Positions 25,583-64,000 of a stretch of 64,000 bases of DNA are shown one piece after another. Numbering within the stretch: the first letter of the stretch is position 1; each line of letters begins with the position of its first letter. Source of the stretch: an uncultured Actinomycetes bacterium (GTDB lineage Bacteria > Actinomycetota > Acidimicrobiia > Acidimicrobiales > Ilumatobacteraceae); contig CALEHE010000301.1 of NCBI GenBank assembly GCA_937876415.1, forward strand, positions 6,389 to 70,388, written 5' to 3'. The notes under the pieces were generated by a model. The model had not been told where the DNA came from. It searched no databases and saw only the letters and a program-made list of their open reading frames with translations. A program made the translations under genes and the position numbers.

Positions 25583-26077
25583 ATGAAAAGACGCGACCGA
25601 GGCTCGAGCCTCATTGAAGTCGTCATCGCCGTTGCTCTCATGGGTGTGGTGCTCTCCGGCGTCTTTGGAGCGATGTGGTCAGCCATTCACCTGTCCAAAT
25701 TTTCTGATGACCAAGCCAAAGTTGAGGCGGTACTCGGCAGTGCTGCCGATCGTTTAGCGAACTACGCCTACATCCCGTGCCCAACCAACAACAGCAACGG
25801 CGGCTACCTCCCGATTATCCAAGCGGCCGCGGGAACGGTTGATTGGCCCCCAAATACCGTTGCTCTGACGGGCATGTATTTCTGGAACCCAACGTCGCCT
25901 GCGTCTGGTATCTGGCTGGAAACAAACGCACTTTCAGCAACCGAATGCAATGAGACCGCGTCACTAACAACAGCTCGAACATTGCAGCGGATCAAGTTCA
26001 CAGTCACGTCACCTTCTGGGTACGCAAAGTCATTGGAGGTGGTGAAGAGCAATGTGTTCCCGCGTTCAATTTCATAA
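25583..26077 (+). CDS. type IV pilin-like minor pilin (PilV/GspH-like) with prepilin-type N-terminus
   Basis: MKRRDRG/SSLIEVVIAVALMGVVLSGVF has a short basic leader, then Gly, Glu at +5 and a hydrophobic helix. The 164-aa protein has two Cys (C66, C122). Confidence 0.7.
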   Translation: MKRRDRGSSLIEVVIAVALMGVVLSGVFGAMWSAIHLSKFSDDQAKVEAVLGSAADRLANYAYIPCPTNNSNGGYLPIIQAAAGTVDWPPNTVALTGMYFWNPTSPASGIWLETNALSATECNETASLTTARTLQRIKFTVTSPSGYAKSLEVVKSNVFPRSIS

Positions 26078-27776
26078 AACCAACGCTCAACCGATTCAGC
26101 GCGATCGTGGTATGACACTCGTTGAATTACTAATGACGGTCACCATTCTCGGCATCATCATGACCAGTCTTTCAGCCGCAATGATTGTCATTCTCCGCAC
26201 TGAAGGTCCTATTAAGAATCATCTTTCTGAATCGAAGGACATTACATTTTTGCAAGCGTGGATACCTAATGATCTGGCGTCGGCAACAAGTCGCAATACC
26301 GAACCACTTTTCCAGCCATCAGCGACGATCGACTTGCTCGGCACCAATGTGCTGACGTTGAATCGTGCCGATATTTCAGCGAGCGGTATTTCCAGCAATT
26401 TCGTGGTGTCTTATCGTTATGTGCAATCAGGTGATGAATGGCAATTGCGGCGATACGAGATTCGCAATGTGGGACTAGCAAACCAAACTGTGACGCAAGT
26501 TGGGGTGGCTCACCAATTGGCATCCCCTCCCCCAACATGGAATCCAACACAATCACCAACTCACGCCGTCACCGTGACCTCGCGTAATCAAGTCGTCCTT
26601 CGACCAATCGGTGAAGACATTCAGGTGGTCTTTGGAAGTGGAGAACAATTCACGACTGGCGGCGCAGGTTTGTCGTCACAAGATCAGCTCCCCACCGATT
26701 ACATGGGTGGAATCATTGATCCCGCCGCACCACCAACTCGATGTGGCGGAACAGTGACTGTCGTCCTCGATACGTCTGTTTCAATTCCGTGGCAAGGTGG
26801 AGCAACATCTCTCGTCAACGCAGCCCTCGGCTTTATTGACGCTTTTTCGGGGACGCCAACTTTCATGCGTATTGTCGGCTTTGACGTCTCTGCGTATTCG
26901 TATTTTCCAACCACCGCTGGCCAATATGTCAACATTCTCAATCCCTCAAACGACCTCACCGCAATGCGGACCAAGGTCGATAACCAAGACTTATCTAACG
27001 CCCGCTGGGGCGGTGGAACGAACTGGGAAGACGGTTTGTGGCAAGCGTTTCGCACCAATGCCGGAACCCCTTTTTCTCAATTACCCGAACTAGTTGTCTT
27101 CATTTCTGATGGTGAACCAAACCGCAATCGAACCAATACATCCAACGACGGTGACGCTCGGTACAACACGACTGATCTGTCACGTGCGGTGACCGCGGCC
27201 AACTACGGACGTGGCACTGGCGCAAGAGTCGTCGGCATTCTCGTTGGCAACGACGCCAGCACAACCAACCAAGGTCGTATGAAGTCAGTCGTAGGAAATG
27301 TTGTCTGGAATGGAACTGGACCAACCAATCCCGGCAATGCCGCGGCCGCCGACTTTTTCTTGCCAGCCAACTCTGCATCCTTCGCCCAGTTAGGAAATGT
27401 CTTGCGTTCGATCAGCGCTGCCGTCTGTGGTGGAACTGTGACCGTTCAGAAACGAATAGAACAAAACGGAATACTTTCTGAAGCAACCGGAACTTGGTCG
27501 TACACAACTGATGTCGGTGTGCGTGACCTCAACACCGCAGAGTCGTCTTCGGCCACCTTTGATTACACATTTCCAGACGGTACAACAACTCGCACAGTGC
27601 AAATCACCGAGACTCCAAAATCTGGATACACATTTGTACGAGCAGATTGTTCTTCATCAGGAGTCATACTTCCCACCAGTCGACTCAGTGCGCCAGCAGA
27701 TGGATCGCCTGGTGCGGTGATTACCCTCAGTCCCGACGAAGCGGTTTCCTGCTTGATGGTGTCGCGGCCATCATGA
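26052..27776 (+). CDS. modular pilin-like protein: prepilin N-terminus + PilW-like region + vWA domain + CnaB/prealbumin-like domain
   Basis: The leader ...IQRDRG/MTLVELLMTVTILGIIMTS fits the prepilin N-methylation pattern exactly. MIDAS residues are DTSVS, GGTNWEDG and ISDGEPN (aa ~231-459). The C-terminal RTVQITETPKSGYTFVRADC resembles CnaB/SpaA domains. Confidence 0.75.
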   Translation: MCSRVQFHKTNAQPIQRDRGMTLVELLMTVTILGIIMTSLSAAMIVILRTEGPIKNHLSESKDITFLQAWIPNDLASATSRNTEPLFQPSATIDLLGTNVLTLNRADISASGISSNFVVSYRYVQSGDEWQLRRYEIRNVGLANQTVTQVGVAHQLASPPPTWNPTQSPTHAVTVTSRNQVVLRPIGEDIQVVFGSGEQFTTGGAGLSSQDQLPTDYMGGIIDPAAPPTRCGGTVTVVLDTSVSIPWQGGATSLVNAALGFIDAFSGTPTFMRIVGFDVSAYSYFPTTAGQYVNILNPSNDLTAMRTKVDNQDLSNARWGGGTNWEDGLWQAFRTNAGTPFSQLPELVVFISDGEPNRNRTNTSNDGDARYNTTDLSRAVTAANYGRGTGARVVGILVGNDASTTNQGRMKSVVGNVVWNGTGPTNPGNAAAADFFLPANSASFAQLGNVLRSISAAVCGGTVTVQKRIEQNGILSEATGTWSYTTDVGVRDLNTAESSSATFDYTFPDGTTTRTVQITETPKSGYTFVRADCSSSGVILPTSRLSAPADGSPGAVITLSPDEAVSCLMVSRPS

Positions 27777-29264: not shown

Positions 29265-30137
29265 TTAGCCAGCCAAAACGGCGCGGGCTACTAGATCGGT
29301 TCCGAATGCGGTCAAGATCGCGAGATACATCAACCCAGTTGCGGCCATCACCGCTGAATACGCCCGTTCTTGCAAGGCCTTCAAGGTGACCACAGCCAAG
29401 ACTCCCGTTGTGATTGCACACGCCACCCAAAACCAACCGAGCTGCCCGCCCCAACCATCGTCAACTGATCCAGTGAAAACACTGAACATTCCCGTCGGAA
29501 TCAACATAACGATGACTTCGAGGGGCCAGATAAACAAGAACGCTTTGACAATCTCGTTGACATGACGCCGAGGTAGCCCCGGTTGAACGAGATACCAGTG
29601 CCCTAACAACATCGCATCAGAAACGAACCCCAAGAATGCTGCTCCGACAATTGTTCTGATAATCGCTACTGCGTCATTACCACCATCTGAAACACCCGCG
29701 GCGATGAGGGCGATCAAACCGAATGCCACCGGGGCGAGATCAAGTAACGGCGCAAATTCCTTACCCTCACCGACTTCTTTTTCCGCACCTTCGCGGTCAA
29801 TCCCGGTCATCTCGGCGATGCGCTGTGATCGACGATCATGTTCATCGACAAATCCGCTCACGCCAGCCTTACGTCGAACAATACTCTGACCGAGGCCGAG
29901 TGCAATAACACCGGTCACTGCGATGGCGGCAAAGTTACGAATCGTTTCAGATGTGGACGATGGAGAAGTTGAGGCAAAACCGATGTACACCGAGGCGCCA
30001 GCCATCAACACATAGATACCGCGCAATAGCCACCCGTAGCCCAAACCCACTTCGCGGTGACGAGTCGTAAACCAGCACCCCAACATGCCGCCGACGGCCC
30101 ATTGCAGGAGCACCGTGGAGGCATCTAGTTCAATCAC
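29265..30137 (-). CDS. integral membrane protein, unknown function
   Basis: 290 aa with about 7-8 hydrophobic helices split by a charged loop (RRKAGVSGFVDEHDRRSQRIAEMTGIDREGAEKE). No family recognised. Confidence 0.5.
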   Translation of the reverse strand: MIELDASTVLLQWAVGGMLGCWFTTRHREVGLGYGWLLRGIYVLMAGASVYIGFASTSPSSTSETIRNFAAIAVTGVIALGLGQSIVRRKAGVSGFVDEHDRRSQRIAEMTGIDREGAEKEVGEGKEFAPLLDLAPVAFGLIALIAAGVSDGGNDAVAIIRTIVGAAFLGFVSDAMLLGHWYLVQPGLPRRHVNEIVKAFLFIWPLEVIVMLIPTGMFSVFTGSVDDGWGGQLGWFWVACAITTGVLAVVTLKALQERAYSAVMAATGLMYLAILTAFGTDLVARAVLAG

Positions 30138-30219: not shown

Positions 30220-30876
30220 GTGTCGTCATTTCGTCTCGCCCAATTGGCCACCGTTATAGGAATGTGCGCACTCATTCTCGGCGGCTGCTTTACGGGTCAA
30301 CGCCCTACTCTGGTACCCACCGAAACGATTCCGCCCATTTCCGATGCAGCTATTCACGACGTCGTGAAGGTTCTTGAATCCGACCCAATGGCCGCATTCA
30401 CCATCACCTACGGAGTTGTCACTAAGTATGGCGATCTTCATACCGCGGTGTCACTTGCTCATGATCCCGCGTTTGGGACGAGCATCACGATTGCCGAGGT
30501 GCGCTATATTTACTTGGCCAATGGCACGGCGTTGACGTGTTCAACAATCACCAGCGACTGTTCACCCGGAATTGATGAATCACGAGTCTCAGATCGCCAG
30601 TTGGTGTCAACGATTTTCAAACAGGCAAGCGTTGATCGTATGCAGCAAGACTCACGAGTCGCAGTCGGTTCGGCAGTTGCCTCGCAAGAAGTCATCGTGG
30701 AAAACAGTGCGATCTGTACCGCAATTCCGGTCGTTGATGGAAACGGCGCCACCCAATCAAAGCGTTATTGCGCGTTTACTCAATTCGGAGTGATTGCTTC
30801 GATGGATACTGCCGATCTCGCCGTCACCGCTTTGTCACACTCGGCAACAACCTCAGCCGATCAGTTTTCGGCCTAA
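30220..30876 (+). CDS. putative lipoprotein
   Basis: Signal peptide with a lipobox (ALILGG/C). 218 aa, GTG start. No family recognised. Confidence 0.55.
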   Translation: MSSFRLAQLATVIGMCALILGGCFTGQRPTLVPTETIPPISDAAIHDVVKVLESDPMAAFTITYGVVTKYGDLHTAVSLAHDPAFGTSITIAEVRYIYLANGTALTCSTITSDCSPGIDESRVSDRQLVSTIFKQASVDRMQQDSRVAVGSAVASQEVIVENSAICTAIPVVDGNGATQSKRYCAFTQFGVIASMDTADLAVTALSHSATTSADQFSA

Positions 30877-32345: not shown

Positions 32346-33046
32346 ACCACACTTTCACCGTCAATCAACCCATCGCCGAAACCTGGGTTGTTCTCACCGA
32401 CCTCGAGCGCATTGCGCCTTGTTTAGCCGGTGCTGAACTACAAGAAGTACACGGCGACGTTTTCAAAGGCGGAGTCAAAATCAAAGTTGGGCCGATCGTT
32501 GCCCAGTTCAAAGGTGAAGCACAATTCGTTGAATTAGACGAGGTCAACTTTCGCGCCCACCTCAAGGCATCGGGCCGTGACATTGGTGGCAAGGGCAATG
32601 CCTCTGCAACGATCACTGCCCAACTCACCTCCATTACGCCGACGAGCACTTCAGTCAACGTTGTGACCGATCTCGCCATCACTGGCAAGGTCGCACAATT
32701 TGGACGCGGCGCACTTGCTGACATCAGTGAAAAACTCATCGCTCAATTCGCTGACAACTTGAACGCCTTGATTGATCGTGAAGGTGGCGCTCCGGCACCT
32801 TCAGCCAGCGCGCCAGTCACTGCTGCTTCAGCCACTGAAACGCCGTCCACTGGCAAGGTCACCGATCCTTCAGCCGAAGAGCCCAAGATTCGTAAAATTG
32901 AAGGCCCCGCCGCCGAACCGCTGAACCTCCAGTCGGTCGCTGGTGGCGCCGTGATGAAGCGACTTCTTCCTGTCGCTGGAGCAATCTTGGGTGTGCTCTT
33001 GTTCATCGTGCGTCCCTTACGCCGGCGTCGCAATCGCGAGAGTTGA
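32336..33046 (+). CDS. CoxG-like SRPBCC protein with C-terminal membrane anchor
   Basis: MDLNHTFTVNQPIAETWVVLTDLERIAPCLAGAEL...KIKVGPIVAQFKGEAQF matches the CoxG family. An Ala/Pro/Ser-rich linker is followed by a terminal TM helix (LLPVAGAILGVLLFIV). It overlaps the upstream gene by 10 nt. Confidence 0.75.
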   Translation: MDLNHTFTVNQPIAETWVVLTDLERIAPCLAGAELQEVHGDVFKGGVKIKVGPIVAQFKGEAQFVELDEVNFRAHLKASGRDIGGKGNASATITAQLTSITPTSTSVNVVTDLAITGKVAQFGRGALADISEKLIAQFADNLNALIDREGGAPAPSASAPVTAASATETPSTGKVTDPSAEEPKIRKIEGPAAEPLNLQSVAGGAVMKRLLPVAGAILGVLLFIVRPLRRRRNRES

Positions 33047-34446
33047 ACAACGACCTCATTGCCAGTCCTCACGATCGAGAGTTAGTCACCCAACTTCTCG
33101 GACGAGAGCCACATAGTGCTTTTGCTGTTGTCGTTCGCGATAGCAACGGAATTCCTGTCGTCATTAAGAACGCCCCATTTCTCGCCGATGGCACACCGAT
33201 GCCAACGCTGTATTGGTTGTGTTCACCCGAAGTATTAGTTGCAGTCAGTCGTCTTGAGGCAGCGGGCGGGGTCAACGACGCCGAAGCGCAAGTTGATTCC
33301 AACGAACTTGAAGATGCCCACCGGCGTTACCAAGCCGAACGCGACGCCTATATTCCTAGCGATCATGATGGCCCTCGCCCATCAGGAGGTGTCGCTGGCA
33401 CCCGCATCGGCGTGAAGTGCTTACACGCTCATTATGCGTGGCATCTCGCAGGTGGCGATGATCCGGTCGGTCGCTGGGTTGCCGAACGTATCGATGGACA
33501 ACACATTGAGATACCTGAAGGAAATTTCTCAAGGGGCAACGTGGCCGCAATCGATATCGGAACAAACTCGACCAATTTGCTCATCGTTGATCACAATGGA
33601 AAAACCCTTAAACGGCAAGTCAATGTGACCCGACTTGGTCAGGGCGTTGACAAGACTCAAACACTGTCACCAGATGCCATTGATCGAACTATTGAATGTC
33701 TCGCGAAATATCGCGAACTTCTTGATGCTCATGGTGCACCTCGCTTGCGAGTTGTTGCATCAAGTGCATCACGCGATGCAGCCAATCGTGATGACTTCTT
33801 TGATCGTGCCGAACAAGTCTTAGGTGTGCGACCCGAGTTAGTAAGTGGCGAAGAAGAAGCTCGTCTTGCTTACCGTGGCTGCACATCACATGTCGATGTT
33901 GACAAAAACAGTCACCTCATCATTGACATTGGCGGCGGATCAACTGAACTCATCGTGGGCACAACTCAGCTGTCGCGCGCCCACAGTATTGATGTTGGTG
34001 CAGTTCGTATGACTGAACGACATCTGCAACATGATCCGCCGCTGCCCGAAGAACTCTTGAATGCCATCGGCGAAGTTCAAGATTTGTTTGACGATGTCGT
34101 ACGAGTCAACCCCTCCATTACCCATGTTCCACAGATCATCGGAACAGCGGGAACGATCGTCACTATTGCCGCAGTTGAACTCGGTCAACAGGTATTTGAT
34201 GCCGATGAACTCCATGGCTTCCGACTGACACGTGACGCAATCGAAGATGTCTTCCGCACTTTGGCAACAGAACCGCTGATTGATCGAATTCATAACCCTG
34301 GCCTACCTCGCGATCGAGCCGATGTCATCGTCGGTGGCTGTTGTGTGCTCGTTGCTTTGATGCGCACTCTTGACGCAGATGAATTGATTGTCTCAACAAA
34401 TAACATTCTTGATGGAGTTTGTGCTGAACTGCTGAGCAACATATGA
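33043..34446 (+). CDS. DUF501 domain fused to Ppx/GppA-family phosphatase
   Basis: The N-terminal ~150 aa are DUF501-like (VVIKNAPFLADGTPMPTLYWLCSP, GVKCLHAHYAWHLAGG). The rest is the Ppx/GppA ASKHA fold (VAAIDIGTNSTNLLIV, IIDIGGGSTELI). TTGA overlap with the CoxG-like stop. Confidence 0.8.
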   Translation: MNNDLIASPHDRELVTQLLGREPHSAFAVVVRDSNGIPVVIKNAPFLADGTPMPTLYWLCSPEVLVAVSRLEAAGGVNDAEAQVDSNELEDAHRRYQAERDAYIPSDHDGPRPSGGVAGTRIGVKCLHAHYAWHLAGGDDPVGRWVAERIDGQHIEIPEGNFSRGNVAAIDIGTNSTNLLIVDHNGKTLKRQVNVTRLGQGVDKTQTLSPDAIDRTIECLAKYRELLDAHGAPRLRVVASSASRDAANRDDFFDRAEQVLGVRPELVSGEEEARLAYRGCTSHVDVDKNSHLIIDIGGGSTELIVGTTQLSRAHSIDVGAVRMTERHLQHDPPLPEELLNAIGEVQDLFDDVVRVNPSITHVPQIIGTAGTIVTIAAVELGQQVFDADELHGFRLTRDAIEDVFRTLATEPLIDRIHNPGLPRDRADVIVGGCCVLVALMRTLDADELIVSTNNILDGVCAELLSNI

Positions 34447-59699: not shown

Positions 59700-62522
59700 T
59701 CAGTCTTTGGTGTTGCTGCGCTGAATTGCGCGTTCATCGGTGCCCAGATAACTCGCGATGACCGCCGGATTATTGCGAATCACGTCCGGCACACCTTCGG
59801 CAATCACGTGACCAGCTTCTAGGCAATAGATGCGATCGGAGATTGACATCACCATTGGCATGTCATGCTCAATGATCAGAATTGATGCGCCCAGTTCTTC
59901 TTTGATCATACGAATAAGTGGACCAAAGGCTTCAGTTTCGCGTTGAGCGACACCAGCTGTTGGTTCGTCGAGCAACATCAACTTTGAGTCCAAAGCAATC
60001 AACGCACCGAGTTCAACAATGCGACGAGTGCCGGTTGAAAGCTCTCCCATCAAAGAGTCGGCGTAGCGACCCAAGCCCAAATACGAAATAATTTCATCGG
60101 CTTCGCGACGTTTACGACCTTCATGTTGAGGCGAAGGCGGCAAAGCCAAGATTGAAGGAATCAGCAGTGAACGTTGCCGAGATTCTAGGGCGACCATCAG
60201 TGTTTCGCGAACTGTCAAAGAACTAAAGAGTCGCGCATTTTGGAAGGCGCGACCTTGTCCAAGTCGAGCTCGCTTGTACGCCGACAACTTTGAGACGTCT
60301 TGACCAAATAGTTCAATAAGTCCCGAAGACGGCACAAAGCCCGATATTGCGTTCACGATGGTGGTCTTGCCGGCGCCGTTCGTTCCGATCAAGCCAACAA
60401 CTTCGCCACTGCGTACCTCAAGTGAAACATCATCGACGATGGTTCGGCCACCGAGCGTGACACAGAGACCTTTCGTGACTAAGGGCGATCCAGAAACTTC
60501 CACTTGTCTTCCAGAACCAAGTGAGGCGACGTCCGCTCCAGCCTGTCGAACCAGTGGCGTCCACTGCGAACGGCGTGCGATCCAGTTCAGCAAGTTGTCA
60601 CGTGCAGCATGAATGATAGAGATTAAACCACTCGGGAAATACAACAGCACGATCAACATTCCAAAACCACTGGCGAACAACTCAACCTGTTTTGTCCCAT
60701 CAAAGAAAAGCGGCACCGCAATAATCAGCAACGTTCCGAGAAGCGCCCCAGTGATTGAACCGATTCCACCAACGACTGCCACCGAAACGATGCGTAACGA
60801 TTCGTCAAAATTAAAAAGTAGTCCGTCAACTTTGAATTGCGCGTTACGAGCGACGAGAGGCAACAAACCTCCGGCTAAAGCCGCGAGGCCACCCGAGACG
60901 CCAAAGGCCAATAACTTTGCTCGATTCGGCGCAACCGTGTACGCCGCCGACGCCGTTTCGTTATCACGCGTCGCAATGATTGAACGGCCGATACCGGTTT
61001 TCCGAATTCGCCACACCACTACGATTGACAACAAAGCCATCAACAGCGTGAAGTAATACACACCGTCAAAATTCTTGCCCTTGACGGTCCAAAAAATGAG
61101 GCGGAAACCCTCATTACGATCAACATTAAGTTGAGCACTTCCACCGCCACCTGGAGCAAATTTTTCACCGACGATAAACCATGAGCGAATCGCTAAGCCA
61201 AAACCAAGAGTGACAACCGCAAGATACAGACCCTTCACTCGCAAAGCCGGAATTCCGACGATCACAGCGGCAATAACTCCCCACAAAACACCAATCGGTA
61301 ATGCAACCAAATAGGGCAACTCGTTCGCGTAATAGATAGTGAGGTATGAACCCAAAGCAACAAACCCGAATTGACCGAGGGAAAGTTGGCCACCCCAACC
61401 AGTGATCACCGTGACGGAGAGGGCAATGATCAGATACACCGGCACCGACGAAAACTTCAACATGTCGCTGGCTTTATCAACTTGACTCGGGAGCACTAAC
61501 GCAAGCGCTGCGATCAAACCGAATCCCGTCAACGTCATCACTCGGTACAACGGGTGCTTCGTTAGTTCAACGCGAGCCGCACGCACCTTGGAAGTTAATT
61601 GCCATGTCTCGTCCTTCATGGAAGCCGAACGTCCCACTGTAAATAACACGACGATGATGACCACGAATAAAACTGCAATGTTTGAACCTGCTGGCAAGTC
61701 TCCGCTCAACGACCACGTAATCAAGAAGCGGTCAATGACTCCCGCTAACAAACCGCCGACCAGCGTCCATGTAAACGACTTCATCCGGCCGACCATGGCT
61801 GCGACAAGTGAAAGCAACAACATCTTGGGACCGAGTGCATTTTGCACGGACGCTATTGACCCACCTTGCAAGGGGGCAATCAATAATGCACTGAGGGCTG
61901 CCAAGAGACCTGCCAACGCCCAAACTTTCGTCGACACTGAGCGCACCCCGATTCCGGCGAGCCGTGCTGCTGAGAAGTTGTCGGCGGTGGCACGAACATT
62001 CATTCCGAATGCGCTGCGGTGAAATAGCCAACCCAAGAAGATCATGAGCACCGGCACGAAAAGCAGAACCGTTAACTGCGGGCCCGTGACGTTGATACCG
62101 GCGACTTTCCAGTTTCCACTAATCAACACGGGAAAAGTGACGTTAGTTGCCTGCTCATCTGGAATGGGTAGACGTAACTGCAGCAACTGAATCACTTGCG
62201 TCAGACCAAGAGTGGCGACGAAAAGTAGCAAACGCGGCTGGGTAAACAGTCGTCGCAGCACTAGCTCTGCCGCAACACCAAGCAAGACTCCACAGAGTAA
62301 AGCGATAGGTAACGACAAGCCGTAAGCGATGTCATATCGCACTTGCAGAAGTGCCATCACGTAACCACCGAAGGCGCCAATCTGACCATGCGCAAAGTTG
62401 ATAACGCCAGTTGCCCGATAAATCAAAAGCAAACCAAAAGCAACTAATGAATAGACGAGACCCTGGATCAATCCGTCAAACAAAATACCGTTTGAATAAG
62501 TCAACGCAATCATCGCGTTCAC
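59700..62522 (-). CDS. LIV-type ABC importer, triple fusion LivH-like permease + LivM-like permease + LivG-like ATPase
   Basis: 940 aa. The N-terminus is LivH-like (GLVYSLVAFGLLLIYRATGVINFAHGQ) and the middle is LivM-like (GWGGQLSLGQFGFVALGSY). The C-terminus is an ATPase with GTNGAGKTT, LSTGTRRIVEL and LMLLDEPTAG. Confidence 0.85.
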   Translation of the reverse strand: MNAMIALTYSNGILFDGLIQGLVYSLVAFGLLLIYRATGVINFAHGQIGAFGGYVMALLQVRYDIAYGLSLPIALLCGVLLGVAAELVLRRLFTQPRLLLFVATLGLTQVIQLLQLRLPIPDEQATNVTFPVLISGNWKVAGINVTGPQLTVLLFVPVLMIFLGWLFHRSAFGMNVRATADNFSAARLAGIGVRSVSTKVWALAGLLAALSALLIAPLQGGSIASVQNALGPKMLLLSLVAAMVGRMKSFTWTLVGGLLAGVIDRFLITWSLSGDLPAGSNIAVLFVVIIVVLFTVGRSASMKDETWQLTSKVRAARVELTKHPLYRVMTLTGFGLIAALALVLPSQVDKASDMLKFSSVPVYLIIALSVTVITGWGGQLSLGQFGFVALGSYLTIYYANELPYLVALPIGVLWGVIAAVIVGIPALRVKGLYLAVVTLGFGLAIRSWFIVGEKFAPGGGGSAQLNVDRNEGFRLIFWTVKGKNFDGVYYFTLLMALLSIVVVWRIRKTGIGRSIIATRDNETASAAYTVAPNRAKLLAFGVSGGLAALAGGLLPLVARNAQFKVDGLLFNFDESLRIVSVAVVGGIGSITGALLGTLLIIAVPLFFDGTKQVELFASGFGMLIVLLYFPSGLISIIHAARDNLLNWIARRSQWTPLVRQAGADVASLGSGRQVEVSGSPLVTKGLCVTLGGRTIVDDVSLEVRSGEVVGLIGTNGAGKTTIVNAISGFVPSSGLIELFGQDVSKLSAYKRARLGQGRAFQNARLFSSLTVRETLMVALESRQRSLLIPSILALPPSPQHEGRKRREADEIISYLGLGRYADSLMGELSTGTRRIVELGALIALDSKLMLLDEPTAGVAQRETEAFGPLIRMIKEELGASILIIEHDMPMVMSISDRIYCLEAGHVIAEGVPDVIRNNPAVIASYLGTDERAIQRSNTKD

Positions 62523-64000
62523 GCGCCCGCCCCAGACAGGAAGACTGCTCGAAGAAGATCGTCACGGTCAAGAAGTTCTTGAGCAGGTCCTTCAAATTTC
62601 ACCTGACCGCGTTCCATAAAGACCGCACGGTCGGCAATGGAGAGTGCCACGTTCACGGATTGTTCAACAATGACCATCGTGACGCCTTGCTCTTTCAACT
62701 TCTCAACAATCTTCAAGAGATCTTGCACCACCACCGGTGCCAAACCGAGTGAAAGTTCATCAATACAGAGTAAATCGGGGTCAAGCATGACGGCTTTGGC
62801 TAGGGCCAGCATCTGTTGCTGTCCACCTGATAATGATCCAGCCCGCTGATCTCGTCGCTGCCAAAGAACATCAAATGTTTCGTACACTTGCGCCAATTTT
62901 TCTTTGCGCTTTCCGTGATCGACAACCTGACGGCTCCATACCTGGAGGTTTTCTTCAACCGTCATCGAGCTAAACACCGCTTCGCCGCCTGGAACTAAAA
63001 CCAATCCCATTGAAGCTCGGTATTGAGGTTCAACCAAAGTGATTGTGCGACCGTTCATGCGCACAACGCCGCGATCTGGCATCACGAGTCCCGAAATCGC
63101 TTTGAGGATCGTTGACTTACCAGCACCATTCGTCCCGAGCAATGCGAGAACTTCGCCTTTTCGAACATCAAAACCTACGTCAAAAAGAACTTGCAGGTTG
63201 CCATAACTGACATCCACATTGCGCACCTGAAGCATCGGGATATTGCCTGGCTCATTTTGCAAGCGCTGCGATTCGGCCTGCTGCTCTTTCAATTCGCTAA
63301 TCGTTAACGCGATATCGCGTTTCATATAACGACTGCCGTAAATGATCAGCAAACTTCCCAATAATGCTGCCGGTGGTACGACAGCGGTGAGCGCAGTGCG
63401 TTCACCGTGAGCGTCCGACAATCCGCCGGCGAGAAGACCACCAAAGAAGCCGCCCATCAAGAAGATGTACACGCCGACCATGGCAAACGCTTGTGAACGC
63501 ATTTGGTACGGAACGATGGCCGAAATAGCAGGTCCCATTTGCGTGAACGCAGCTCCTTGAAAAGCGTTGCCAATGGTGACAAAAGCAATCATCAGAGCAG
63601 CACTCTGAAAGCGCATTCCGACCGTGACGAATATTCCGTAGCAAAGAATGCATATACCCATCATTCGCAAAGCCGATGGCGGATTACGCCTGAACAACTT
63701 TTCACCAACACGTCCAGCTAATGGAATTCCGATGAGCGCGCCCGACCAGGTGATCGCCCCAATCCAACCGCGTGTAAACGCGCTGTAGTCATATGAGTTT
63801 TTCAAGAGCAAGTTGAACGCTCCGGGCACTGCAATCAGGGCAAACCCAAGAACACCGATACCGACTACTAAGAAGTAAAACGTACGCACTTTCTTCAAAC
63901 GTTGAAATGCTGCAGACAACAACACAGGTGGTTCTGCTTCGGCATCAACTACCGCTTCACCTAAAACTGCTTCTTGCTCTTGACGGCCACGTGTCGGCTC
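62519..64000 (-). CDS. MFS-like membrane domain fused to LivF-like ABC ATPase (N-terminus outside window)
   Basis: The C-terminal ATPase has GTNGAGKST, LSGGQQQMLAL and LLCIDELSLGL. It is preceded by about 6 TM helices with MFS-like loops. The frame stays open from 63925 to the window edge (EPTRGRQEQEAVLGEAVVDAEAEPP reads like a central MFS loop). ATGA-coupled to the downstream gene. Confidence 0.8.
   Translation of the reverse strand, partial: EPTRGRQEQEAVLGEAVVDAEAEPPVLLSAAFQRLKKVRTFYFLVVGIGVLGFALIAVPGAFNLLLKNSYDYSAFTRGWIGAITWSGALIGIPLAGRVGEKLFRRNPPSALRMMGICILCYGIFVTVGMRFQSAALMIAFVTIGNAFQGAAFTQMGPAISAIVPYQMRSQAFAMVGVYIFLMGGFFGGLLAGGLSDAHGERTALTAVVPPAALLGSLLIIYGSRYMKRDIALTISELKEQQAESQRLQNEPGNIPMLQVRNVDVSYGNLQVLFDVGFDVRKGEVLALLGTNGAGKSTILKAISGLVMPDRGVVRMNGRTITLVEPQYRASMGLVLVPGGEAVFSSMTVEENLQVWSRQVVDHGKRKEKLAQVYETFDVLWQRRDQRAGSLSGGQQQMLALAKAVMLDPDLLCIDELSLGLAPVVVQDLLKIVEKLKEQGVTMVIVEQSVNVALSIADRAVFMERGQVKFEGPAQELLDRDDLLRAVFLSGAGA

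Follow-up and report, generated by a model that had tools for sequence, protein, structure and literature searches.

The operon and the modules of g2

The stretch of DNA analysed here (hereafter referred to as the window) comprises 64,000 nucleotides (nt) of contig CALEHE010000301.1 (assembly GCA_937876415.1, positions 6,389 to 70,388) from an uncultured member of the Ilumatobacteraceae (Actinomycetota; Acidimicrobiia), with a G+C content of about 53%, and contains an operon of three genes, g1, g2 and g3, that encode putative minor pilins. The genes are tightly packed, the 3' end of g1, the first gene, overlapping g2 by 26 nt and the ATG of g3 overlapping the g2 stop codon (ATGA). The middle gene, g2, is the subject of the present analysis. 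Its product is predicted to join, in this order, a class III (prepilin) signal peptide, a pilin module resembling GspJ/PilW, a von Willebrand factor A (vWA) domain with a metal-ion-dependent adhesion site (MIDAS) and a SpaA/CnaB-type beta-sandwich (Table 1); the modules lie in series and the vWA is not nested within another domain. It is considered likely that g2 is a modular minor type IV pilin, located at the pilus tip and adhesive.

Table 1. Coordinates in the window of the operon genes and of the predicted modules and motifs of g2 (aa, amino acid residues; a slash marks the predicted prepilin cleavage site)
Feature	Residues	Nucleotides	Strand	Evidence
g1, small minor pilin, I/H-like, RDRG/SSLIEVVIAV with Glu5	164 aa	25583-26077	+	N_methyl 27.9 bits
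g2, three-module minor pilin	574 aa	26052-27776 (including stop codon)	+	intact open reading frame, AlphaFold2
g2 leader peptide, ending in Gly20, predicted prepilin-peptidase site before Met21	aa 1-20	26052-26111	+	128-sequence alignment, N_methyl, TIGR02532
g2 pilin module, alpha-1 helix (aa 23-77) and eight beta-strands (to aa 202)	aa 21-208	26112-26675	+	AlphaFold2, Foldseek
g2 linker, predicted disordered, ending in Pro-rich DP-APP-R before C231	aa 209-230	26676-26741	+	pLDDT <50
g2 vWA domain	aa 231-458	26742-27425	+	Foldseek, MIDAS, Pfam VWA in relatives, BLASTP
First Cys-Gly-Gly-strand motif, CGGTVTV; C231 three residues before vWA beta-1	aa 231-237	26742-26762	+	
MIDAS residues D240-x-S242-x-S244	aa 240-244	26769-26783	+	
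MIDAS residue T323	aa 323	27018-27020	+	
MIDAS residue D353	aa 353	27108-27110	+	
Second Cys-Gly-Gly-strand motif, CGGTVTV; C459 two residues past last vWA helix, opening first beta-sandwich strand	aa 459-465	27426-27446	+	
g2 SpaA/CnaB-type (prealbumin-like) beta-sandwich	aa 459-574	27426-27773	+	sub-threshold SpaA_4, AlphaFold2, relatives
Beta-sandwich Cys C533	aa 533	27648-27650	+	
Beta-sandwich Cys C567	aa 567	27750-27752	+	
g3, large minor pilin, K-like, DRG/SALLMVLILM without Glu5	490 aa	27773-29245	+	weak GspK, PilX_N

Conservation was examined in an alignment of 128 relatives (39-97% identity) obtained with a profile of distant members, to which statements of invariance below refer. 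Pfam domain counts in relatives were taken from a diverse set of 30 sequences, and the species-level genome scan employed a closer alignment of 11 sequences.

The N-terminus of g2 reads RDRG/MTLVELLMTVTILGII, with Gly at position -1 and Glu at +5, and its class III signal, MCSRVQFHKTNAQPIQRDRG/MTLVELLMTVTILGIIMTSL, is composed of a short leader up to the Gly, the Glu5 and a hydrophobic run. Both Pfam N_methyl (26 bits, cut-off 21.2) and TIGR02532 (25 bits, cut-off 16.3) exceed their curated thresholds, and N_methyl matches 28 of the 30 diverse relatives. Gly20 is present in all 118 sequences without a gap at the site and is followed by F or M, while Glu5 (E25) is kept in all 124 ungapped sequences. 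The type IV prepilin N-terminus noticed in a first-pass annotation of the window, made from the letters alone without database searches, is thus borne out.

Following the leader, AlphaFold2 predicts the long alpha-1 helix and beta-sheet of the 'lollipop' pilin architecture, mostly with values of 86-97 in the predicted local distance difference test (pLDDT). The mean pLDDT of the whole g2 model, built from the 128-sequence alignment, is 82.5; aa 1-212 modelled on their own attain a pLDDT of 87 and a predicted template modelling score (pTM) of 0.75. With the module-only model as Foldseek query, the top three matches in the PDB are the pseudopilins XcpW (5bw0_E) and EpsJ (3cfi), at probabilities of 0.94-0.97, and these are the sole pilin class among the 50 matches listed. 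Some relatives of g2 are named 'PulJ/GspJ family' or 'type II secretion system protein J' by NCBI; the GspJ and PilW hidden Markov models of Pfam and NCBIfam do not match g2. The PilW-like core proposed in the first-pass annotation therefore stands in part: J-type pseudopilins head the structural list and relatives bear the family name, so that a J-like (GspJ/PilW type) module is a reasonable assignment, though one weakly shown by the match statistics weighed below.

The whole g2 model retrieves the minor pilin PilB of Streptococcus sanguinis (7ba2/7b7p) as first Foldseek match in the PDB (E 2e-8, about 490 columns spanning pilin and vWA), followed by 4fx5 (a vWA protein of Catenulispora), SpaC, integrin I domains, CMG2/TEM8 and TRAP. 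The pilin and vWA folds foreseen at first reading are hence predicted by modelling, and PilB, which had been named as a precedent, is the best match, with SpaC among the top ones. Between the two folds lies the linker, in which P224, A226, P227 and P228 reach 90% conservation or more and R230 does not vary. The end of the linker next to C231, D-P-x-A-P-P-[ST]-R, is nearly invariant family-wide despite its predicted disorder, which suggests a role beyond spacing.

The vWA domain carries the MIDAS motifs VVLDTSVSI (D240, S242, S244), GGTNWEDGL (T323) and VVFISDGEPN (D353), from which a complete site had been read, and all five residues are invariant in the alignment, as are the columns N324, W325, G354 and P356. 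Their placement in the AlphaFold2 model is canonical, with D240, S242 and S244 after the strand 234-240, T323 before the helix 325-331 and D353 after the strand 347-352. For the vWA domain, Foldseek returns a probability of 1.0 to the same PilB entries, 4fx5, SpaC, integrin I domains and CMG2 (E 1e-8 to 1e-5). The vWA call is based on these structural results, on Pfam VWA matches in 11 of the 30 relatives and on a BLASTP alignment (E 2e-32, described below) to an LPXTG protein whose own VWA match is above the cut-off, not on the Pfam result of g2 itself. The MIDAS would bind a metal (Mg2+/Mn2+) and a ligand.

The C-terminal segment, aa 459-574, is modelled as an all-beta domain (pLDDT 80-95) and is aligned by BLASTP to the first beta-sandwich after the vWA of an LPXTG protein, P0246. 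Pfam SpaA_4 matches 11 of the 30 diverse relatives and does so strongly in the LPXTG relatives, while Cna_B (PF05738) and SpaA (PF17802) give no match to g2 at E up to 10. Of the CnaB-like C-terminus claimed beforehand, the SpaA/CnaB-type all-beta fold and the presence of SpaA_4 in relatives hold good, but the two named profiles remain unmatched and SpaA_4 is below threshold in g2. Many, though not all, CnaB/SpaA domains contain an intramolecular Lys-Asn/Asp isopeptide bond. K467, E520 and D562 of g2 are conserved in the family, with D562 modelled in a turn rather than in the last strand, and the conserved pair C533-C567 suggests stabilisation of the beta-sandwich by a disulfide instead of an isopeptide bond. 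Neither an LPXTG motif nor a membrane anchor is found at the C-terminus of g2, which ends in ...SCLMVSRPS; the lack of an LPXTG signal had been read correctly, and the N-terminus is of class III. Among relatives, LPXTG is confined to distant ones that share the cassette alone.

Cysteine motifs and the ancestry of the C-terminal cassette

The heptapeptide CGGTVTV stands on either side of the vWA, and its two copies, identical at 17 of 21 nt, were placed accurately in the first-pass annotation, which attributed them either to a disulfide clamp or to a duplication scar left by domain insertion. An exact 7-mer repeat appears in only 30 of 20,000 composition shuffles and is, therefore, not due to chance. 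If the vWA had recently entered an older pilin-CnaB protein by a duplication or insertion that left a scar, both the identity of the flanking peptides and the rarity of such a repeat would be explained, yet comparison across the family leaves next to no probability for such a scar. The first motif has the consensus C-G-[G/K/R]-[R/T]-[V/I]-[A/T]-[L/I/M/V], most commonly CGGRVAL, with C231 and G232 invariant, and the second C-G-G-T-[V/L/I]-T-[V/L/I], with C459, G460, G461 and T462 invariant; the two are thus ancient and independently conserved, and are identical in only five of the 128 relatives. In the window's own lineage, 95 of 120 proteins carry CGGTVTV together with CGGTITV and only 15 have two identical copies. 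The motifs also bracket the vWA in relatives that have an LPXTG or Sec signal and no pilin part: in LPXTG relatives the second motif likewise comes after the vWA, and in LPXTG and Sec-signal relatives the first takes the form CG[LI], again 9 aa before DxSxS.

The nucleotide sequence points the same way. Only three of the seven synonymous third positions agree between the copies, so that 17 of 21 identical nt is about what is expected of two identical peptides with independent codon choice. The flanks of the copies are unrelated, with no extended DNA repeat around them, and a search for DNA repeats within g2 gave short chance-level families only, among which the heptapeptide pair was not recovered. 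The duplication-scar reading was accordingly rejected on the family comparison, as was the reading of the vWA as an inserted domain, vWA and beta-sandwich being one C-terminal cassette in series. As judged from the alignment, the conserved element, present twice, consists of a Cys, a Gly-Gly turn and a beta-strand in that order, and the exact identity of the two copies is incidental. Since they are also found in relatives without the pilin part, both motifs belong to the cassette of vWA and beta-sandwich.

Mature g2 has exactly four Cys, at positions 231, 459, 533 and 567, of which the first three are invariant and the last is present in 127 of the 128 sequences. In the LPXTG relatives, each extra SpaA_4 repeat brings exactly one pair of Cys about 25-35 aa apart, and the one remaining pair, with a spacing of about 190-205 residues, brackets the vWA. 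This parity assigns C533 and C567 to an intradomain pair and C231 and C459 to the bracketing pair. C231 and C459 thus most likely pair in a disulfide that holds the N-terminus of the vWA to its C-terminus as a staple, and C533 and C567 would pair within the beta-sandwich, as is typical of every SpaA_4 repeat. The disulfide clamp of the first-pass annotation is a plausible reading. In the vWA fold, the N- and C-terminal ends meet at the face opposite the MIDAS, and the A1 and A3 domains of human von Willebrand factor have a single disulfide from a Cys shortly before beta-1 to a Cys just past the last helix. C231 and C459, with their putative disulfide, occupy the equivalent positions, although g2 shows no detectable sequence relationship to A1 and A3 beyond the vWA fold.

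The origin of the cassette is indicated by distant relatives that match aa 224-573 alone and are proteins with a Sec signal, several of them with a C-terminal LPXTG. A BLASTP search with aa 225-574 aligns aa 231-572 end to end with P0246 at 31% identity (E 2e-32). The alignment begins exactly at C231, which corresponds to C43 of P0246 and lies there about 10 residues past an N-terminal hydrophobic (predicted signal) segment; all the MIDAS motifs match, CGGTVTVQK is placed over CGGTVTVDK, and C533 and C567 over C308 and C335. P0246, P0260, P0262 and P0265 all have Pfam VWA above the cut-off together with SpaA_4 matches, P0260 with as many as ten SpaA_4 stretches. None of 21 non-pilin homologues inspected (from Thermoleophilia, Chloroflexia, Propionibacteriaceae, Microthrixaceae and others) has a prepilin motif; most have Sec-type N-termini, and 19 of the 21 carry CG[LI] 9 aa before DxSxS.

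The link to sortase-substrate adhesins suggested by the first-pass annotation thus proves to be stronger than the letters alone had shown. The homology to P0246 and the existence of relatives devoid of a pilin part indicate that vWA and beta-sandwich make up an established surface-protein head, which was joined as a single unit to the C-terminal end of a J-like pilin. In Actinomycetota and Chloroflexota the same cassette forms the head of surface proteins that are Sec-exported and LPXTG/sortase-anchored, and its fusion to a J-like pilin is found in Acidimicrobiia. No sortase was seen near the LPXTG relative examined, for which reason the LPXTG relatives may be wall-anchored adhesins and not pilus tips. 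At one further locus (L088; 5164-10016 and 12388-18016), two adjacent surface proteins with VWA and SpaA_4, one of them P0246, are encoded a few kb from a pilin cluster, which includes a gene with a faint VWA match that is truncated where the locus ends. To judge from these genes, one genome may contain both the wall-anchored and the pilin-borne form of the cassette.

Distribution, pilus clusters and probable function

Metagenome-assembled genomes (MAGs) labelled Ilumatobacteraceae, from Lake Mendota, and Actinomycetota, from the Caspian Sea, match the locus in the window at 96-98% identity, and more than 100 clusters of g2 at 86-97% identity are present in lake metagenomes. An exhaustive search of the representatives of 50%-identity clusters gave 890 related clusters at E <=1e-3 and 63 at E <=1e-30, many of the representatives being full-length matches of 554-645 aa with 33-54% identity to g2. 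In larger relatives (600-1,470 aa) the pilin end, the vWA and the terminal beta-sandwich are all retained but separated by additional sequence. Among the 117 representatives of at least 500 aa, the prepilin motif is recognisable in at least 82, a further 20 or so begin, through miscalled starts, at the mature 'MTLPELL', and only six have an LPXTG C-terminus; the close homologues are, therefore, pilins, a point on which the choice between a pilin and a sortase context had been made to depend. In the species-level genomes, full-length homologues are restricted to Acidimicrobiia or to MAGs labelled Actinomycetota or Actinomycetes (about 45 genomes), the named hosts being Ilumatobacteraceae, Ilumatobacter and Acidimicrobiaceae. 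Two GenBank MAGs titled 'Bifidobacterium breve' (L007, CAMDCI010000004.1; L008, CAMDER010000018.1) carry a locus of the Ilumatobacteraceae type, and in view of its 87% protein identity and full synteny this label is evidently wrong. In comparison with relatives, the ratio of nonsynonymous to synonymous substitution rates (dN/dS) of g2 is 0.05-0.14 overall, with dS up to about 1.8, and ranges over 0.03-0.20 across the modules, with the lowest values in the vWA (0.03-0.07). As the ratio is low in every module, g2 is under purifying selection.

The order g1-g2-g3 is kept in nearly every one of the loci L001-L048 that reaches both sides; g1 is found directly upstream of g2 homologues in nearly all of L001-L048 that cover that side, and g3 downstream in nearly all of L001-L049 that do so. 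The g1 product has weak NCBIfam matches to XpsI/GspI, GspH and ComGE. In g3 the N-terminal matches to PilX_N (E 0.061) and T2SS_GspK (E 0.0013) are weak, Glu5 is absent in every homologue inspected, and a PDB sequence search gave no match. An H-like fourth minor-pilin gene is not present in the 64-kb window, and a scan of the operon for promoters and terminators gave nothing over shuffled expectation. The relatives of g3 span 531-1,082 aa, while g3 itself has no recognisable domain past its weak GspK/PilX_N matches. Ilumatobacter MAGs (L084, 9384-20692; L085, 3616-14871) have two I-J-K-like operons in tandem with differing J and K proteins, preceded in L085 by an additional small N_methyl gene; the g3 proteins of these operons have 900-1,082 aa and one of them (L085, 11791-14871) has a PA14 domain. 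The PA14-bearing relative and the range of sizes suggest that g3 may be a second modular tip adhesin.

A complete type IV pilus cluster surrounds a g2 homologue of 46% identity on a contig labelled uncultured Actinomycetes (L086, 6633-16409, on the contig of L029). It encodes, in order, T2SSE (523 aa), T2SSF, g1, g2, g3, Peptidase_A24, a second T2SSE (389 aa, with a PilT-type Walker A), DUF429 and a major pilin of 124 aa, which is canonical and type IVa-like, KG/FTLIELLIVIVILG, with a C-terminal pair of Cys. A second full cluster of the same kind (L087, 8969-20865) is built around a g2 relative of 1,019 aa, and each of the two includes a PilB-like ATPase, a PilC-like T2SSF, a Peptidase_A24, a PilT-like ATPase, DUF429 and a canonical major pilin. 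A PilT-type Walker A is also encoded downstream of the operon in L023, L029, L032, L043 and L044.

These clusters bear on whether g1-g3 might instead be pseudopilins of a filament that resembles type II secretion or serves competence (DNA uptake), with the cassette binding cargo or cell-wall components. The names of relatives after secretion protein J, the T2SS pseudopilins as nearest PDB folds of the pilin module and the occurrence of the I-J-K set in all type IV filaments (PMC9934059) all agree with such a role. It is nonetheless quite improbable: a PilT-like second ATPase and a type IVa-like major pilin, both present in the related clusters, are marks of retractile pili, and neither ComEA nor ComEC is encoded nearby. 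A classical type II secretion system is, moreover, not expected, since Actinomycetota are generally monoderm.

Several features of the window lie outside these subjects. Downstream of the operon, conserved open reading frames of 290 aa (29265-30137, - strand) and 218 aa (30220-30876, + strand) without a Pfam match are syntenic only where g2 is at least 70% identical and so are probably outside the pilin system. DUF501 and a Ppx/GppA phosphatase share one frame of 467 aa (33043-34446, + strand) and are also fused in L022 and L009, whereas they are adjacent genes in different frames in most other relatives covering the region (L001, L002, L007, L008, L010, L011, L014 and others); the single frame is either a lineage-specific fusion or an assembly frameshift. 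Two unusual transporter genes are located on the - strand, one of 940 aa (59700-62522) with two BPD_transp_2 permease stretches, an ABC ATPase and a branched-chain C-terminal motif, and the other (62519-63925) a fusion with an MFS_1 match and an ABC_tran domain.

The set g1-g2-g3 matches both the I-J-K logic of minor pilins and the PilA-PilB-PilC tip complex of S. sanguinis, and by analogy a location of g2 at the tip can be proposed. Prepilin peptidase would cleave g2 after Gly20, and the J-like module would join g1 (I-like, with Glu5) and g3 (K-like, bulky, without Glu5) in the membrane in a complex that primes assembly and is carried to the tip, a step modelled on GspI-J-K and S. sanguinis PilA-B-C. 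The linker, a flexible and partly conserved Pro-rich segment of about 20 residues, would hold out the vWA, whose metal-loaded (Mg2+/Mn2+) MIDAS would bind an acidic side chain (carboxylate) of the ligand; the SpaA-type beta-sandwich follows. Through the C231-C459 staple, linker and beta-sandwich would both be fastened to the vWA at its base, and retraction by a PilT-like ATPase, as seen in relatives, may pull on the bound ligand.

Several results weigh against this account of g2 as a modular tip adhesin. The J-type assignment hangs on XcpW and EpsJ matches that are weak (E 0.04-0.15, target-normalised TM 0.44-0.58), and the pTM of 0.54 for the whole model makes the relative positions of the modules unreliable. 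A PDB sequence search with the single g2 sequence gave no significant match, and with the family profile only marginal pilin and vWA matches were obtained (best E 0.004). The Pfam calls that the first-pass annotation had looked to for its domains are likewise found in relatives rather than in g2, where the vWA is not called (VWA_2, E 0.11, 13.6 bits, cut-off 27) and SpaA_4 (PF24514; aa 477-570, E 4.8e-4, 21.3 bits) is under its cut-off of 27.3. Two further points, the gene content of the window and the range of functions of vWA domains at pilus tips, are each the starting point of another explanation.

Pilus assembly genes (T2SSE, T2SSF, Peptidase_A24) are absent from the 64-kb window, the remaining content of which is housekeeping metabolism and transport genes, as would be the case if the operon were an orphaned, non-functional remnant. 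This is very improbable: the frames are intact, the dN/dS values are low at appreciable synonymous divergence, the place beside a CoA-transferase gene is kept in closer relatives, a weaker CoA-transferase homologue (about 30% identity) also adjoins the operon in the Ilumatobacter MAGs, and hundreds of intact variants are found in lake metagenomes. The remnant reading was rejected on account of the intact frames, the purifying selection and the conserved location.

The vWA domains of pilus tips can also serve in sensing or pilus biogenesis, as in PilY1 and CpaL. The g2 protein could accordingly be a tip-located sensor or biogenesis factor whose vWA, like theirs, changes conformation under load and controls pilus dynamics or the response to surfaces, the staple tuning mechanical stability. 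The position (a vWA on a minor-pilin tip complex) and the fold are the same; CpaL, a predicted fusion of minor pilin and vWA, affects surface sensing, and a disulfide in PilY1 is reported to matter for mechanosensing (bioRxiv 10.1101/2025.02.12.637803). A conserved internal role would account for the invariant Cys and the very low dN/dS of the vWA no less well than would an adhesin with variable ligands. Such a function is all the same unlikely, in that no signalling partner is encoded near the operon in the window, L086 or L087, a complete and invariant MIDAS is the hallmark of ligand binding, and the same cassette heads wall-anchored proteins that have no pilus to regulate. The sensor and adhesin roles are compatible and do not exclude each other.

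Adhesion by a tip-located g2 can be carried into a broader proposal, which is doubtful though possible. The pilus tip of Acidimicrobiia would have captured whole the Cys-stapled vWA and SpaA head of sortase-anchored wall adhesins, so that one cassette serves two unrelated display systems in one phylum; these abundant, uncultured freshwater plankton would attach by it to particles, algae or other cells, and the staple would make the head force-resistant during PilT-like retraction.

Comparison with known systems

The protein most like g2 is PilB of S. sanguinis (PDB 7B7P/7BA2; PMC8179133), in which a class III signal and a pilin module are likewise joined through a short linker to a vWA with a MIDAS. 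PilB is one of three minor pilins needed for piliation, is predicted to be at the tip and has been shown experimentally to be an adhesin, and in the PilA-PilB-PilC complex two of the three minor pilins are modular adhesins (PMC9934059). The two proteins differ in that they are about 12% identical in structural alignment, that PilB has a small pilin module and no C-terminal SpaA-type domain whereas the J-like module of g2 has about 185 aa, and that their hosts are Firmicutes and Acidimicrobiia, respectively. We know of no pair of Cys bracketing the vWA in PilB like that of the g2 family. As the cassette of g2 groups with actinobacterial LPXTG proteins, g2 and PilB are probably of independent origin.

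The pilin module of g2 resembles, by weak Foldseek matches, the J subunits of the H-I-J-K tip complex (GspJ/XcpW/EpsJ, PilW), and its gene is likewise placed between an I-like gene and one for a bulky, Glu5-less K-like protein, but classical J subunits end after the pilin module and g2 has 345 extra residues that form two further domains. RrgA and SpaC carry their vWA as an insertion in a beta-sandwich domain; the domains of g2 are in series. The sortase-anchored adhesins SpaC (PDB 6M3Y/6M48), RrgA and GBS104 resemble g2 in combining a vWA with a MIDAS and CnaB/SpaA-type beta-sandwiches; they have a Sec signal peptide, an LPXTG and covalent attachment by sortase, in contrast to g2, which has neither the Sec signal nor the LPXTG. 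PilY1/PilC of Gram-negative type IVa pili and CpaL of the Caulobacter Tad pilus present a vWA at the tip via a minor-pilin complex, as is proposed for g2. PilY1 is not a pilin and has a C-terminal beta-propeller, while g2 is a pilin with no such Pfam match at E up to 10 and has a C-terminal beta-sandwich of about 115 aa. In CpaL a predicted Tad-class pilin-like module is fused to a vWA with a MIDAS, which is split by an inserted beta-rich region (bioRxiv 10.1101/2025.02.12.637803).

The first-pass annotation held that a pilin core, a vWA and a CnaB-like domain in one polypeptide had not been described. Among the InterPro entries concerned, IPR041033 is presumably the SpaA-type prealbumin-fold domain. 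A census of InterPro architectures in 2021 lists IPR012902-IPR002035 in 52 and 7 proteins and IPR012902-IPR041033 in 2 proteins, and no architecture that joins IPR002035 to a further domain (PMC8179133, Dataset S1). The claim thus holds for the three-module form with a SpaA-type domain, which is absent from the census, and not for pilin-vWA fusions in general, which are known from PilB, CpaL and the 59 census entries, nor for the family itself, hundreds of members of which are in databases. In a search of the literature, no relevant work on type IV pili came to light for either Ilumatobacter or Acidimicrobiia.

The gain of new functions by simple type IV filaments is currently explained by modular pilins, which have been studied to date in one streptococcus and, by prediction, in Caulobacter; the g2 family extends this design to Acidimicrobiia, which are abundant in lakes. 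By direct sequence homology the effector cassette is shared with sortase substrates, and two surface-display systems have here clearly exchanged domains. Database annotation gives g2 and most of its relatives an N_methyl call alone, in spite of the vWA and SpaA-type domains present, which provides a rule for annotators; members of the family are named just 'prepilin-type' or 'GspJ family'. The cassette, aa 231-574, offers a soluble target for finding what these plankton bind. In its design, g2 follows the same modular-pilin plan as PilB and CpaL and is not a new kind of system; what is new here is the three-module form, the attachment of the effector to a J subunit encoded in an I-J-K operon, the conservation of the Cys staple motifs, the cassette ancestry shared with sortase substrates and the host group.

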